Shown here: positions 50,247-64,000 of the stretch, in pieces
How positions within the stretch are numbered: position 1 is the stretch's first letter
Layout of the letters: every line of letters begins with the position of its first letter
NCBI GenBank assembly: GCA_963674595.2
Contig: CAXXFV010000023.1
Span: 32,001-96,000 of the forward strand
Direction: 5' to 3'
DNA length: 64,000 nt
DNA from: a bacterium
GTDB lineage: Bacteria > Zhuqueibacterota > Zhuqueibacteria > Residuimicrobiales > Krinioviventaceae
Translations under genes and position numbers: made by a program
Notes under the pieces: model-generated
Told to the model about the DNA's origin: nothing
Database searches by the model: none
The model's input: only the letters and a program-made list of their open reading frames with translations

Positions 50247-51683
50247 TCAAGCTGTTTTAGAATTTTTTAATTGTTTTAATATAGAGGGTAAATATTGAAA
50301 AAGATAATCAATGTCCTGCAGGGTATTTTCAAGACCAAAGCTGAAGCGGATAATTCCATAATCCCTGGTGTCGGTTCCGAGAGAACGAATAACATGCGAG
50401 GTTTCCGTACTTCCCGCACTACAGGCCGACCCGGAGGAAACGTATATACCGATTTCATTTAAACTTAATAAAAGGGCACCGCTGTCAATGCCTTTAAACC
50501 CAATATTCAAATTATTGGTGAGCCTGTTATTTAAAGAACCGTTTATGATAAAATCAGAGGTTGTATTTTTCAGTTTTTCGAGAAAATATGTTTGCAGTGT
50601 TTTAAAACGATTATATTCCTGAACTCTTTCACTAACAGCAATTTTGGCAGCTTTTGCCAATGCGGCGATATAGGCAATATTTTCAGTACCGGCACGTTGC
50701 CCATGTTCCTGACTGCCGCCGTGAATAAGGGGTGATATTTTTGTGTCTTTGCTGATATATAAAGCACCAATGCCTTTGGGAGCATAAATTTTATGTCCGG
50801 ATAATGATAACAATGAAATACCGGTGGTTTTTGGAGCAAGTTGTATTTTGGCAAAAGCCTGAATGGCATCAACCATAAATGGAATGTTGTACGTGTTGCA
50901 AATTGCACCAATTTTGTCAATTGGGTTTATTGTTCCGATTTCATTATTAACCGCCATTATAGAAACAAGAATAGTATTTTTTTTGATCATTTTTTCGAGA
51001 TTGGTAATATCTACCAAACCATCGGGTGTAATATCCAGATAAGAAACCTGAAATCCCAATGTTTCCAGCCATCGCAGTGTTTTCAGAACAGAGGAATGTT
51101 CGTATTTACTGCTGATAATATGTCCCTTTTTATCAAGATGTTGAAAAGCAATTCCTTTTATGGCAAGATTATTGGCCTCTGATCCGCTTCCGGTGAAAAT
51201 AATCTCTTCCGGCAATACATCAAGCGTTTTGGCAATTGTGCTCCGTGCTTTTTCAATTTCTTCATAGGCATTTTTTCCAAGAACGGTGCTGTTACTGGGA
51301 TTACCAAAACCAAATGGATTATCAAAATAGTTATTGAGGACCTTTTTGACTTCGGGACGGATATAGGTTGTTGAATTATGGTCCAGATAAACATGCCGGA
51401 TTTTGTCTACATCAACGTGGGCAATGGGTTTACAGCCGTCATTCGTTGTTTGTATGGGAATGCCGACCCATGAATATACCGAGTTTAATTCATGCGGGAA
51501 CAAGCTTTTCAACTCTTCTCTTGTTACCCCCAATGATTTATATAGGATATGATAAAGCGGTCCAACACGATATTTATGATAATGCTCGTAGGCAAAATTT
51601 AAAATTTCGTAATGCCTGTGGTCAAGTGTTGTATTTGTTAAGCGGGCCATTTGGTGAATGGTTGTTTTGACAAGATTATCCAT
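50247..51683 (-). CDS. Group I cysteine desulfurase (IscS/NifS-like) with N-terminal TusE/DsrC-like domain
   Basis: YLDHNSTT, FTGSGSEANN, NNEIG, SGHKIYAPKG, RAGTEN, SSGSACS; residues ~10-85 resemble the DsrC helical fold and end in GC. Confidence 0.85.
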   Translation of the reverse strand: MDNLVKTTIHQMARLTNTTLDHRHYEILNFAYEHYHKYRVGPLYHILYKSLGVTREELKSLFPHELNSVYSWVGIPIQTTNDGCKPIAHVDVDKIRHVYLDHNSTTYIRPEVKKVLNNYFDNPFGFGNPSNSTVLGKNAYEEIEKARSTIAKTLDVLPEEIIFTGSGSEANNLAIKGIAFQHLDKKGHIISSKYEHSSVLKTLRWLETLGFQVSYLDITPDGLVDITNLEKMIKKNTILVSIMAVNNEIGTINPIDKIGAICNTYNIPFMVDAIQAFAKIQLAPKTTGISLLSLSGHKIYAPKGIGALYISKDTKISPLIHGGSQEHGQRAGTENIAYIAALAKAAKIAVSERVQEYNRFKTLQTYFLEKLKNTTSDFIINGSLNNRLTNNLNIGFKGIDSGALLLSLNEIGIYVSSGSACSAGSTETSHVIRSLGTDTRDYGIIRFSFGLENTLQDIDYLFQYLPSILKQLKNSKTA

Positions 51684-51697
51684 AATTTCTTTCTCTG

Positions 51698-52582
51698 TTA
51701 AAAATCGCCGGCGGATGGATACATGTGAAACGGAAAACCATTTTGTGAACGTTGCATGGCATCTACTATGGTTTCGAAAATTTTAAACGGCATTGCCAGT
51801 CCCAGCCGTTCTGCCTCATACTGGGCTATAATTCGGCTTCCAAGACAATAGGATGAAACATTTATTTGTTGTTCGAGATAAGGACGGGCAATCAGATCGG
51901 AGCCGACCGCACGCAGCCCTCCCATATTGGCGATGACTCTTTTTCCTGTATCGTATTGAAAAGCCTGAATAATACGTGTCAGTTCTACCGGTCTGACATC
52001 ACATAAAACCAGGTCAGGCTCAAGGTCATAGTCCTTTGAATAAAAAAACACGGCCTGTGTCGTTGCCGGTTGAATGGCCGTCATCTCCGCTACGGCTGCT
52101 TTGGCGGTATCAACATCTTTGAATCTGCCGCTGTCCTTTTCACCAAAAAGACAAAATTCTTTTTTACCGGCTGCATGACAGGCATAAACAAGACCGTCTG
52201 TAAAATCTTTGGGAGAAGGCGGAACAAAATTGTTTTTTTCGTTATATTGTTCGCGCATTAAATCCGTATAAACTCGCGGACCTTTTAAGGGATTTGGATC
52301 ATTCTGATCTACGAGTCCGAGAGAAATTGCAGCGGCAATACAGCCGATGTTTTCTTTAGACAGGCATATTGCATCACCTGTTGACGCTTGTCTTACGGCC
52401 TGGCAAGATGTCAGCGAAATAGAGTCGGGATGATGCTCCCATACTGCGTCCGGAACAGTGTCGGTTTGTTTGTAAATTTTGATAAAAGTAGTGGGTATTT
52501 CCAGTCCCTCTATGCCGAAACTGTGTACCAGATTATCATAAAGGTGTGTCAGGTCGATTTCTTTCATCTCCTTGAATTCCAT
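51698..52582 (-). CDS. DUF169 (COG2043) family protein
   Basis: SCQAVRQA..G, IGC.AA..SLG, EPDLV, SYCLGSR, LAMP. Start uncertain (52582 chosen; ORF open to 52636). Confidence 0.75.
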   Translation of the reverse strand: MEFKEMKEIDLTHLYDNLVHSFGIEGLEIPTTFIKIYKQTDTVPDAVWEHHPDSISLTSCQAVRQASTGDAICLSKENIGCIAAAISLGLVDQNDPNPLKGPRVYTDLMREQYNEKNNFVPPSPKDFTDGLVYACHAAGKKEFCLFGEKDSGRFKDVDTAKAAVAEMTAIQPATTQAVFFYSKDYDLEPDLVLCDVRPVELTRIIQAFQYDTGKRVIANMGGLRAVGSDLIARPYLEQQINVSSYCLGSRIIAQYEAERLGLAMPFKIFETIVDAMQRSQNGFPFHMYPSAGDF

Positions 52583-52781
52583 TGTGTTATGTCTGTTTGT
52601 AGAAAAGAAGATCAAAATAGTATTCAAAAAATACAAAAATCATACCATGTTACATTGTGAAAAAAGTCTTTATTTTTTTCAAGAAATAAACTATGTTTCA
52701 GTACATAAAGATTGCTTGCTGTTATTATATATTTTTAATCTCATATTTTTGTTATTGAAAATCCGTTAATGAGGAGAAAAG

Positions 52782-59953: not shown

Positions 59954-60052
59954 GCTGTACGTTTTTTGAATGCAATTCATAAAATAAAAAATTGTGTTGC
60001 TGTAAGTGCAATAAATACAATGATAAAATTTTTTTGATACTTTTTCCAATTA

Positions 60053-60067
60053 TGGCATGACGGTTGC
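60053..60067 (+). promoter_or_regulatory. Sigma54 (-24/-12) promoter
   Basis: TGGCATG-ACGG-TTGC matches TGGCACG-N4-TTGC. Confidence 0.85.
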
Positions 60068-60120
60068 CTGAACAAGGCTGTAAGAGAGAACAATTGGCAT
60101 TTTAATATTAGGAGTGTATC

Positions 60121-60537
60121 ATGTTTAAAAGATCATTGATTTTAAATTTATTGTTAACAGCTATTATCTGTTCCGTAGCATTTGGGCAGGCACATGCAAC
60201 AACAAAACCTTTGGATAAAAAAGACCAGGAATTAATACAATCACTACAGGATGATAATTTGGGTATTCGCACAAGTGCCGCACAGCTTCTTGGTGAAAGA
60301 GGTATAAAAGCCGCTGCCGATGATTTAATGGATATGTTGAAAAACGACAAAGAATATCGTGCACGCATAGTTGCCGGTATGGCCCTTTTGGAAATGGGCG
60401 CCGAAAACGCCTACGATTCTGTTAAACACCAGGCAGAACATGATAAAAACAAAACCGCACGAAATGTGTTACGCGGTGTTGTCAAACGTATGGAACGGGA
60501 ACAAAAAGTTACATTCGCAACTCCAGAAAATAATTAA
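60121..60537 (+). CDS. Small secreted HEAT-repeat protein
   Basis: AGGAG RBS; signal peptide; LIQSLQDDN..IRTSAAQLLGE, L..MLKND....ARIVAGMAL.EMG. Confidence 0.8.
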   Translation: MFKRSLILNLLLTAIICSVAFGQAHATTKPLDKKDQELIQSLQDDNLGIRTSAAQLLGERGIKAAADDLMDMLKNDKEYRARIVAGMALLEMGAENAYDSVKHQAEHDKNKTARNVLRGVVKRMEREQKVTFATPENN

Positions 60538-60545
60538 GCCGGAAA

Positions 60546-60575
60546 GGCCCCATGAAAATGGGGCCATTTTTGTTT
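60546..60575 (+). terminator. Intrinsic terminator
   Basis: GGCCCCAT-GAAA-ATGGGGCC followed by ATTTTTGTTT. Confidence 0.75.
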
Positions 60576-60617
60576 GGTTCGTCTTGTAATGCTGGTCTAG
60601 GGGAAATTAAAGTTATT

Positions 60618-63212
60618 TTATTTTAGTTTTTTTTCTACTCTATTTAATAACTTTAAATCGTCCTCTTCAGTAAAGGTTTCTTTGTTAATGTCTTGAATGA
60701 GTATTCTAATTGCTTCTTTTTTTCTTGAATCAGATATTTTAATTTTGTCAATGGTTTTAATAGCAAACAAAATATCTTCTTTATTATGAGAAACAAGCAA
60801 ATGTTTTATTTTTTCGGCAATTAAATTATGAATTACATTATCTGAGATTGATTCTGTTGAGAGAAATTCTATTAAACCAGTAAAATTGTAATCATTTTTA
60901 TCTAATTCCTTTAAAACTATTTTTATGCTTTTTCTTATTGCTTCTTGTGAAATTTCTGCTTCACGAAGTTTGTTGAATACCTCTACAAGCTCATCATAGT
61001 CTGCTTCATCTAGTGTTTCATTTATAATAACCTCTATAATTTCACTAGCCCCTAATTTATTAAGGACGCCTATTATATCCAGTTTAACATCGCTTGATAA
61101 TTTATTAACCTCTGTTTTAAAAGATTCTATTAATACCGGATTTTTCAATATTGTCGAAAGCCACTGAATTATAGTTTCCTTATTTTCTCCATTTATTAGG
61201 TTAATATAATTTCTAAAGATTTTCGATATCTGATTCTGATTTAAGCCATTGTCTTTTGTGGTTATTGAAAGCATTAAATTAATAGTTGATGCTATTTCTA
61301 TTTTCGTATCCCAATCGCTAACTTGAGTGAAACGTTCAATAACTTTTTGAGAAAATGGCCAATTATAAACTTCAAAATGATTTATGATATCTTTATAAAG
61401 GGTATTTATATATTGTATAATTTTATGTGATTCATTCCTAGAAAAGAAATTGTTTAACCAGGTTATTTGTTGATCGCTTTGAGATGATATATTTGTTACA
61501 TAATAAAGCTCTTTAATACTATTTGTTAGAATTAATAATGATTCTTGATATATGCTATTATTCCATGCTAAATTATAAGTAGACCAAAAATAATCATGCT
61601 TTGCTTGAAGAGTGTTATGAATATTTGTTGTTATTTCATCGTCATTAGTAAATTTTAGTAATATGCTTAACTCCTTTAACCAAAATGGAAGAGTTTTAAG
61701 ATCATTTATATTTTTAATAAAGCTTAATACCTTTATTAGATAATTTTCATATTGTTTGTTTGATAATCCATTGGATTTTGTTAAAATGGATATTATTTTA
61801 ACTTTGTATATATTTTCATCATCGTCAACGTTAACAGATATTTCATTTATAAATTGGTCAGTTAAGTTACTATTAATTAAATTTTTTACAACTTCATGAT
61901 TTGAAAGAATATCCTCTATTTCATTTATAAAATTGAAATCCTCTTTTATAAGTGAAATGAATTTAGGAGAAATTTGTTTATAATCTTTTGGGGATTCTTG
62001 AAAAGTACGGATGTACTGAATTAAAAGTTGTTTGCTTTTATTTTCGTTATTAATCGTCTCTATGACAGTTGGTTTTAAATGAGATGTTAGTGAATTGTTA
62101 TTTTTAATAAAATTAAGTAGTAATTTACTATCTAAATCTAATATTATTTTCTGAATATTTGAAGAATTAATAAAGTTTTTAAAGTTACCTAAAAATTTAC
62201 CCTTACCATATAAAAGATTATTAATATCTTCTTTGAGTATTGAATCAAGCGAAAGTTGAAACAAAAGATTTAAAATATTAACGATCGTTGTTTTAAACTC
62301 ACCTCTTCTAATTGCTTTTTCAAACTTTGTATCAATGAATTCAATTAGTTTAGAGCCTGTTAATTCTTTGTTTTCAATTTGTTGTTCAATGCTTTCAAAA
62401 TCATTTGATTCCACTAATTTATTTGTAATATCAGGAATATCTCTGAATGAGTCTTTAGTGTTAAAGAATAGTTCATAGTTAGTGTGGTTTGGTTTAATAT
62501 GTTCCGTTCTTCTGAAAAAGCGTATTTGTTCATCTTTCAACTTAATATCACTGATTTGTTGAATTTGGTGAAGGTCTTTTATCAATATAGGAGTTTCTTT
62601 TAAATTATTATAAATGTCTGGCCATTCTTCTCGAATAATCAACAGTTTTGTGAAAAATGCTAAATTATCTGTAATTGATTTATTCGGAATAATTTTACGT
62701 CCTTCCTGAAAATTTGCTAGTAATAACTCCGTTTGTAAGACATTTAAGAATTGAATTATTTTTCTGGGATTTTTTGAAAATTCTTGAGAAATAATGGATA
62801 TAACTTCTACAGGAAAGCCAAGTTTATATTCCTTATTTAGCGTTTTAGCAAAGTCAAACAAATCTCCTTCTGATATCCTTTTTATATAAATGGTTGTATT
62901 AAATAGTTTTCTGATGAACTCGTTTGGGTCATTACCACATTTTTCTATATGTTTTTTTATTTCGCTTTCATCAATTGGAATAATAAATATGACATTTTTT
63001 TGTTCCAAGAAATTTTTAATTGTTAGTAATAATTCAAATGCAAGGTCCTTATGGCATCTATCGATATTATCAATAACAATTACTATTTTTTCGATATTTT
63101 CTTTCTTATTGCTTATAATGCTGTTTAGCCATTGCCATTTAATTTTTTGTTTATTGGTTAAACTGTTTATAATTTCTGTAATACTTATCTTTGAACTTGA
63201 GAAAAGGGCCAA
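60618..63212 (-). pseudogene. KAP-family P-loop NTPase, 5'-truncated by IS insertion
   Basis: Walker B IVIVIDNIDRC, EFIRKLFN, NPRKIIQFLN; no Walker A and no RBS; very AT-rich; abuts the IS. Confidence 0.8.
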
Positions 63213-63250
63213 AAATATTAAATTAGTCTATTATGAAAAATGGAGGCCCA

Positions 63251-63556
63251 ATGAGCAAACGAAGACGCTTTACTGCTGAAGAAAAAGTCCAAATTTTAAG
63301 AGAACATTTAGAAAATAAGATCAGCATATCCGAAATAGCTAAACAATATAATATTCATCCTGTAGTTATACACAGATGGAAAAAAGAGCTCTTTGAAAAT
63401 GCGCTTGACGGTTTTTCCGGCAAACATAAAAAGCGTAAAGGAAAATCTGTCAAAGAAGAACGTCTTGAAACCAAAGTCAGCAAAATGCAGGAAGTCATCA
63501 CCGAACTCTCCACAGAGGTCGTTGATTTGCGAAAAAAGTATTTTGGGGCAACCTGA
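63251..63556 (+). CDS. IS3-family transposase OrfA
   Basis: TGGAGG RBS; MSKRRRFTAEEKVQIL...ISEIAKQYNIHP..IHRWKKE HTH and coiled-coil tail. Confidence 0.88.
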   Translation: MSKRRRFTAEEKVQILREHLENKISISEIAKQYNIHPVVIHRWKKELFENALDGFSGKHKKRKGKSVKEERLETKVSKMQEVITELSTEVVDLRKKYFGAT

Positions 63557-64000
63557 AAAAGACATGGGTTGCTCCTGATGTTAGAGATGATGTTTTGTCT
63601 TCTCTGCAAACGTTAACGGCAAAGACCGGTGTTCCTTTGAGTTTATTACTCAAGACCATTGGTTTGTCCTGGACCCGGTACTATGACTGGCAAAAACGTT
63701 TTGGTCAACCAAATCAACATAACAGCGACACACCTCGCAGCTTTTGGCTGGAACCGTGGGAGTGTCAACGTATCATAAAATACAAAAAGGAACATATGCA
63801 GATCGGCTATAAACGACTGACCTATATGATGCTTGATGAAAATGTTGTTGCTGTGAGCCCGTCAACGACCTATCGTATTCTGCGGAACGCCGGACTCACA
63901 AGTCAATGGAATAACAGTACGTTACAATCAAATAAGAAAGGCTTTATTCAACCCAAAAGACCGCATCAGCATTGGCATATAGATATTTCCTATATTGCCT
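63538..64000 (+). CDS. IS3-family transposase OrfB (DDE integrase), partial
   Basis: Open -1 frame not in the ORF track: VFWGNLKKTWVAPDVRD...YYDW...GYKRLTYMMLD...SPSTTYRILR...PHQHWHIDISYI (first catalytic Asp). Confidence 0.85.

Follow-up and report, generated by a model that had tools for sequence, protein, structure and literature searches.

A DsrC/TusE-like domain fused to a cysteine desulfurase and its constant DUF169 neighbor point to a two-gene sulfur-delivery module in many bacterial phyla

In Escherichia coli, sulfur for the 2-thiouridine of tRNA travels along the IscS-TusA-TusBCD-TusE-MnmA relay, and in the SufS-SufE, CsdA-CsdE and NifS-NifU pairs the persulfide passes from the desulfurase to a cysteine that a dedicated partner carries on a mobile loop. 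DsrC of dissimilatory sulfite reductase carries a second cysteine ten residues ahead of the one on its arm. Here, we analyzed a stretch of 64,000 nt from a bacterium of the family Krinioviventaceae (in the following called the window), in which a single gene joins a DsrC/TusE-like domain to a cysteine desulfurase (the fusion) and lies directly downstream of a gene of the DUF169 family. We conclude that the DsrC-desulfurase fusion together with DUF169 is a real, undescribed variant of the desulfurase-carrier sulfur relays. The built-in carrier and the constant DUF169 neighbor point to an unstudied two-gene module for sulfur delivery across many bacterial phyla.

As in the E. coli Tus relay, a type-I desulfurase would feed a DsrC-family carrier with a single cysteine on a flexible arm. 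In contrast to that relay, the carrier forms the N-terminal part of the enzyme's own chain, lacks about the first 22 positions of the family profile and has its cysteine mid-chain in a linker; the constant partner is DUF169, and within the neighborhood that was inspected, no TusA, TusBCD or MnmA gene lies adjacent. With DsrC (PDB 2v4j, 2xsj, 3or1, 1yx3) the domain shares the LFPxG motif and, as modeled, the helical fold, but it lacks the second cysteine, the free C-terminal arm, the N-terminal hairpin and the DsrAB context. The hand-over logic that we propose is the same as in SufS-SufE, CsdA-CsdE and NifS-NifU, except that the acceptor is DsrC-like instead of SufE- or IscU-like, is tethered at the N-terminus, and is followed by a second protein, DUF169. 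Our literature search, judged partly by title and abstract, turned up no account of a desulfurase fused to DsrC or TusE.

The N-terminal extension of the fusion is a true DsrC homolog of the TusE-like kind, whose arm runs on into the enzyme instead of ending. The Pfam DsrC profile (PF04358) matched residues 6–65 with its positions 23–89 of 107 (E 5.7e-5, 23.9 bits), and in a six-frame search of the genome the same profile reached 26.9 bits at the fusion site, above its cut-off. A phmmer search against the PDB ranked DsrC 1yx3 first (E 1.3e-5), a profile built from six homologs matched seven PDB entries, all of them DsrC (best E 1e-8), and hhalign paired residues 9–67 with the canonical TusE of the same genome at 94.8% probability. 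The AlphaFold2 (AF2) model of residues 1–100, computed from an alignment of 34 sequences, has an overall predicted local distance difference test (pLDDT) score of 84.3 and shows five helices predicted with confidence. The top 8 of 51 Foldseek rows were all DsrC-family chains (probability 0.95–1.00, TMq 0.51–0.67), the DsrC rows having root mean square deviations of 1.1–2.5 Å over 62–80 columns and E-values from 6.6e-3 to 0.57. Residues 1–75 are hence modeled as sharing the DsrC helical fold. In the same AF2 model, the block pLDDT is 92–97 through residue 70 and 49 for residues 81–90, with residues 82–86 below 50, so the arm bearing Cys84 is predicted to be flexible when the N-terminal domain is folded alone.

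Cys84 is the single cysteine within residues 1–100 of the window's protein. It is invariant in all 35 full-length homologs and also in a second alignment of 34 rows, which has no further invariant cysteine of the kind that marks DsrC sensu stricto. By eye, Cys84 lies 19 residues beyond Glu65, which in the window's LFPHE stands where LFPxG has its G; in the genome's TusE this distance is 17. The domain departs from the family at both of its ends: profile positions 1–22 are unmatched, corresponding to 21 N-terminal residues of the genome's TusE that are absent from the fusion, and Cys84 is residue 84 of 478, with the desulfurase domain following it where DsrC and TusE have a free C-terminus. The original prediction, made from the DNA letters alone, had called the N-terminus a DsrC/TusE homolog that keeps the arm cysteine and lacks the inner one. 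Profile, PDB, hhalign and fold comparisons all point to DsrC, and the conservation of Cys84, on which that prediction had staked itself beforehand, holds in all full-length homologs. The description as TusE-like stands for the DsrC/TusE fold and the single arm cysteine but not for a whole TusE, with the front of the profile gone and the cysteine in an interdomain linker. When we re-read the sequence, the reading frame, the Cys84 codon and the 14-bp gap to DUF169 were all where they had been placed.

The remainder of the protein matched Aminotran_5 (PF00266) at residues 98–461 (E 1.5e-70). The best NCBIfam match was the NifS model (TIGR03402), with 410.7 bits over positions 1–375 of 379 against a cut-off of 530.75; the IscS model (TIGR02006) gave 353.6 bits against 643.2, and a selenocysteine lyase model 93 bits against 525. 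Judged by these scores, the domain is a distinct branch of the NifS/IscS group in which the equivalog cut-offs are not reached. All 35 aligned full-length homologs keep K298, C421, H196, D272 and Q275 unchanged, and with the class-V fold and the Lys/Cys pair in place, residues 98–478 very probably constitute an intact type-I (NifS/IscS-like) cysteine desulfurase. The window's genome holds 22 Aminotran_5 matches, three of them scoring above the fusion, and a separate canonical single-cysteine TusE beside a DsrE-like gene. Because the genome has these other desulfurases and its own TusE, we regard the fusion as an accessory gene, not as the housekeeping desulfurase. The canonical TusE is 105 amino acids long and ends in GKPQGCV. 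In the region C16:115148–118447 of the window's genome (G000; locus L009), it lies between the DsrE-like gene of 159 amino acids and a gene of 220 amino acids, after which follows a sulfide:quinone oxidoreductase-like flavoprotein (names assigned by eye).

An exhaustive HMMER search with residues 1–98 against 1.84 billion representatives yielded 17 matches, comprising 15 fusion-family proteins or fragments and two proteins with multiple DsrC repeats; a convincing stand-alone version of the N-terminal domain was not among them. A word-index search with residues 1–110 returned two proteins only, which understates the family size relative to HMMER and the genome scan. By a pattern scan in which each species was represented by a single genome, we identified 31 loci with the fusion. 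According to the record titles, these belong to the Thermodesulfobacteriota, Chloroflexota, Planctomycetota (Scalindua), Nitrospirota, Nitrospinota and Acidobacteriota, and further to the Gemmatimonadota, Ignavibacteriota, KSB1, SAR324, Spirochaetota and a Bacteroidota-labeled group. Across about a dozen phyla, the fusion and DUF169 are each 50–61% identical. Within the window's order, 5 of 41 genomes possess the fusion, and four fusion-bearing genomes belong to the window's own family. An assembly or frameshift artifact was considered as the origin of the gene and rejected, given the identical architecture in 35 independent sequences.

The gene directly upstream is a clear member of DUF169 (PF02596; E 4.3e-29, 102.3 bits against a cut-off of 27). 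Its stop codon (51698–51700) and the ATG of the fusion (51681–51683) are so close that the two genes are coupled in an operon-like manner, and at other loci they lie a few bases apart or even overlap (e.g., L028, L032). A scan for promoters and terminators was uninformative, with 18 promoter-like sites where 15.3 were expected. At 30 of the 31 species loci, DUF169 lies directly upstream of the fusion on the same strand; the one remaining locus extends just 4 bases ahead of the fusion gene, so that its upstream neighbor cannot be judged. The same arrangement occurs in four of four fusion-bearing genomes of the window's family. In one Desulfobacteraceae assembly (L029:7093–7976), the DUF169 frame is split in two (228 and 73 amino acids), either by a frameshift or by a sequencing error.

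Three cysteines, Cys60 (TSCQA), Cys81 (NIGC) and Cys246 (YCLG), are invariant in 30 of 30 DUF169 copies of the module, and they are also kept in all four alignable distant DUF169 paralogs outside it (from seven loci examined), in which a long insertion of the module copies (about residues 92–150) is gapped. The AF2 model of DUF169 (pLDDT 89.5; predicted template modeling score 0.89) places each invariant cysteine at the start of a helix. In metagenomes the DUF169 subfamily is frequent: a search gave 504 proteins at E ≤ 1e-3, and among the matches listed, 119 beyond the window's own DUF169 were 55–64% identical. The family is found in 14 of the 41 relatives, the fusion in only 5 of the 41. By sequence, DUF169 matched no PDB entry and no NCBIfam family, and a search of the protein atlas gave only DUF169 clusters. 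Foldseek found no PDB structure at E ≤ 1e-3 (the best was GAPDH with E 0.06 and TM 0.14), and in the wide VIA-align search Z peaked at 4.4 (PfaB), with thiolase/ketosynthase and PheRS-beta structures next at Z 3–4, values too low to assign a fold.

The window's fusion had from the outset been paired with a cysteine-rich DUF169 of no known function and described as standing apart from other sulfur genes. This picture was borne out: DUF169 accompanies the fusion in other genomes wherever this can be judged, its cysteine motifs include the three that are invariant in 30 homologs, and our literature search likewise yielded no function for DUF169 (COG2043). None of iscU, nifU, suf, mnmA or thiI is adjacent to the pair, whose neighbors in the window are unrelated genes (transglutaminase-like, AHSA1-like, GH20, GH3 and a permease). 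The suggested complex of the two proteins came through in part. Predictions with the full fusion, DUF169 and purpose-built alignments scored 0.51, 0.61 and 0.49 (median ipSAE, interaction prediction score from aligned errors, 0.51), compared with 0.01, 0.00 and 0.00 for the controls; at least 82% of contacts were shared between runs, with a partner pLDDT of 88 or more. In the calibration of the tool, 58 of 80 solved complexes passed the mark, as did 2 of 110 mismatched pairs, and scores up to 0.60 comprised only 7 of the 80 solved complexes plus both passing mismatches. The median exceeds the mark and the best control, and the complex prediction lends weak support to binding between the fusion and DUF169.

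A third gene, which the original prediction had not noticed, recurs near the module. A binding-protein-like gene of the NMT1_2 family (PF13379) lies within 8 kb at 12 of the 31 loci, either as a stand-alone form of about 310 amino acids or as a receiver-NMT1_2-CheW protein (REC-NMT1_2-CheW) of about 640–680 amino acids, and an HPCC motif is invariant in 12 NMT1_2 copies. At Desulfobacterales loci, a hybrid histidine kinase stands beside the pair in place of NMT1_2, and at one Scalindua locus a PAS-GAF kinase. In the window's order (41 genomes), the same five genomes hold the fusion and the NMT1_2 subfamily, and the other 36 hold neither. Among 41 relatives of the genome of locus L034 (G042, labeled Desulfosudis oleivorans), the subfamily is present in six of six genomes with the fusion. 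In four of five further module genomes it is encoded elsewhere in the genome; in one of these, it is flanked by a CheY-like gene (by eye) and by a CheX gene and a sigma-54 activator. The REC-NMT1_2-CheW architecture resembles CheV with a ligand-binding insert, and we know of no description of it, although no literature search aimed at it was made. In the "nitrate cluster" of Desulfovibrio alaskensis G20, the DUF169 gene Dde_0597 stands beside a PtxB-like binding-protein-like gene, a PAS histidine kinase and a response regulator (PMC4001038). The NMT1_2, kinase and receiver neighbors described here echo these binding-protein, kinase and regulator genes, but the cluster table of that paper has a TauE-like permease and no desulfurase fusion (PMC4001038).

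From the observed parts and gene linkage, we infer a private sulfur relay that leads from Cys421 via Cys84 to the three-cysteine site of DUF169. It is the best-supported mechanism, and we hold it to be fairly probable, though well short of assured. With its catalytic residues intact, the NifS/IscS-type domain, which would depend on pyridoxal 5′-phosphate (PLP), would take sulfur from L-cysteine and form a persulfide on Cys421. The persulfide would then pass to Cys84 on the flexible arm that tethers the carrier domain to the enzyme, and this first step would take place within one polypeptide or its dimer. The helical DsrC-like domain would dock onto DUF169 and deliver the sulfur into a pocket formed by the three invariant cysteines at the helix N-termini, where DUF169 may hold it as persulfide or build a metal-sulfur center. 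DUF169 is widespread, and in the module subfamily it is locked to a private desulfurase bearing its own DsrC-type carrier, which offers the testable hypothesis that DUF169 receives sulfur on these cysteines. The fusion also implies that a DsrC arm need not be a free C-terminal tail but can function, or at least persist, as a tether within a longer chain, which broadens the picture of what this carrier family is used for.

The best lead for a final client of the relay would be the cytoplasmic NMT1_2 binding-protein-like signaling proteins with their invariant HPCC motif. Their recurrent tie to the module hints at sulfur trafficking linked to chemotaxis-type signaling. In a bolder form of this idea, the DUF169 and DsrC-desulfurase pair would serve an unrecognized class of cytoplasmic chemotaxis and two-component sensors (REC-NMT1_2-CheW, or stand-alone NMT1_2 near CheY/CheX) as their input or maturation machinery, loading sulfane sulfur or a sulfur cofactor onto the HPCC site. 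We consider this a long shot; if true, the cysteine or sulfur status of the cell would be coupled to motility or gene control, and DUF169 would be a new carrier of persulfides or clusters.

Several observations weigh against the relay and its proposed client. The Pfam DsrC score at the protein level is slightly below the cut-off of 24.9, the TIGR03342 model gives 25.2 bits, far below its cut-off of 53.5, and none of the Foldseek matches of the N-terminal domain has an E-value of 1e-3 or lower. A short representative from metagenomes (P0015) extends to the arm position but has no cysteine there; its tail is unlike that of all other members and may be a frameshifted read. The complex score falls into the range where calibrated passes are more often wrong than right, unless the pairing is already likely. 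Since DUF169 has no clear fold relative by either Foldseek or VIA-align, its chemistry is a guess, and a search for longer fused forms of DUF169, including a triple fusion of DUF169 with the fusion protein, found none, which is weak evidence. As for NMT1_2, its subfamily also occurs in 6 of the 35 relatives of G042 without the fusion and is absent from the module genome G043 at E ≤ 1e-10, the gene in the window's own genome lies on another contig and is unlinked to the module, and the related genomes in these counts are non-independent samples. The co-occurrence of NMT1_2 with the module is accordingly a tendency, not a law.

The closest alternative to the relay overlaps with it: DUF169 could be the client instead of a carrier, namely an enzyme or sensor with an iron-sulfur (Fe-S) or other metal-sulfur center, for which the fusion would serve as private cluster-building desulfurase, as NifS does for nitrogenase, with Cys84 as a scaffold ligand or shuttle. 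The three invariant cysteines at helix N-termini, kept even in distant paralogs, would suit such a center, and NifS is the best model for the desulfurase domain; DUF169 without the fusion is also common (14 of 41 relatives, compared with 5 of 41 for the fusion), and general Fe-S machinery could serve those copies. But Pfam, NCBIfam and fold searches matched DUF169 to no Fe-S or metal-binding family or fold, no IscU/NifU scaffold gene occurs nearby in the window or among the conserved neighbors, and three cysteines alone are insufficient to define a cluster site. We think this version unlikely, though not remote. More doubtful still is a purely regulatory role, in which the DsrC-like domain would be a docking or helix-turn-helix-like module and Cys84 a redox switch whose disulfide with Cys421 stops the enzyme or frees sulfide. 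Such a switch would fit a domain that lacks the N-terminal part of DsrC and has its cysteine away from a free end, in a module often found beside histidine kinases, receiver domains and CheW-type proteins. It sits poorly with the DsrC arm layout, which by eye is kept from LFPxG through the helix and G-I-P to the cysteine at nearly the spacing of TusE, and with the strict pairing with DUF169, which favors a hand-over partner.

NifS-type enzymes can act on selenocysteine, and the NifS-like domain could be a selenocysteine lyase from which Cys84 carries selenium to DUF169. The genome does use selenium, its selD having an in-frame TGA, and a comparative selenium study tabulates a DUF169 gene among its candidates for YedE-associated genes (PMC5322559). 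However, selD occurs in 41 of 41 relatives (37 above the cut-off) and does not track the five module genomes, the selenocysteine lyase model stays far from its cut-off, and the catalytic cysteine is retained as in true desulfurases, which together make the selenium version very improbable. The selD gene itself (G000 contig C4:13190–14113) contains one TGA in frame, as in most relatives, and because of this the window's lineage probably makes selenoproteins.

Table 1 Features of the fusion and DUF169 genes and of the REC-NMT1_2-CheW genes. Positions are those of the window unless a contig or locus is named.
Feature	Position	Strand	Remarks
Fusion gene, DsrC/TusE-like domain + arm + cysteine desulfurase	50247..51683	(-)	478 amino acids plus stop
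Predicted DsrC-fold domain, residues 1–75	51459..51683	(-)	five helices, without the family's N-terminal hairpin
Arm/linker, residues 76–97	51393..51458	(-)	invariant Cys84 (51432-51434), then invariant Lys85
Putative type-I cysteine desulfurase domain, residues 98–478	50250..51392	(-)	
PLP Lys298; catalytic Cys421 (SSGSAC)	50790-50792; 50421-50423	(-)	codons checked
14-bp spacer, DUF169 stop to fusion ATG	51684..51697	(-)	sequence read directly
DUF169 gene	51698..52582	(-)	294 amino acids from Met at 52582; open frame extends to TTG at 52636
DUF169 invariant Cys60; Cys81; Cys246	52403-52405; 52340-52342; 51845-51847	(-)	codons checked
REC-NMT1_2-CheW gene of the window's genome (G000)	contig C15:298174-300138 (L063:7174-9138)	(-)	
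Further REC-NMT1_2-CheW genes	L049:5127-7094; L032:5074-6984		

Looking at the wider surroundings, the gene order in the same family is REC-NMT1_2-CheW, DUF169 and the fusion, followed by an RluA-like pseudouridine synthase and a GalE-like epimerase (the last two by eye). The window's pair lies at a different genomic site from these family copies (L049-L051, L020). In a phylogenetic tree, whose deep branches are poorly supported, the window's fusion has a metagenomic protein as its sister (support 96/93), whereas the copies of its own family fall elsewhere. Compared with these family copies, NMT1_2 is 73–76% identical, the fusion 53–55% and DUF169 51–59%. The diverged fusion and DUF169 at another site, set against a closely similar NMT1_2, suggest that the pair was replaced or relocated by gene transfer in the window's lineage.

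When 20 flanking proteins were searched with Pfam, those other than NMT1_2, kinase and receiver proteins turned out to have unrelated functions, including beta-lactamase, adenine deaminase, RecJ, WD40, radical SAM, malic enzyme, rhodanese and carboxypeptidase, with no recurrence beyond close kin. Among them, a rhodanese-domain protein lies just 3′ of the pair at one Caldilineaceae locus (L037:9559–10128, minus strand), and radical SAM genes lie upstream in divergent orientation at two Desulfobacterales-type loci (L035:4747–6546 and L048:5034–6911, minus strand); neither is widely recurrent. At the end of the window (60001–64000), the G+C content falls to 0.29–0.31, compared with about 0.40 elsewhere in it.

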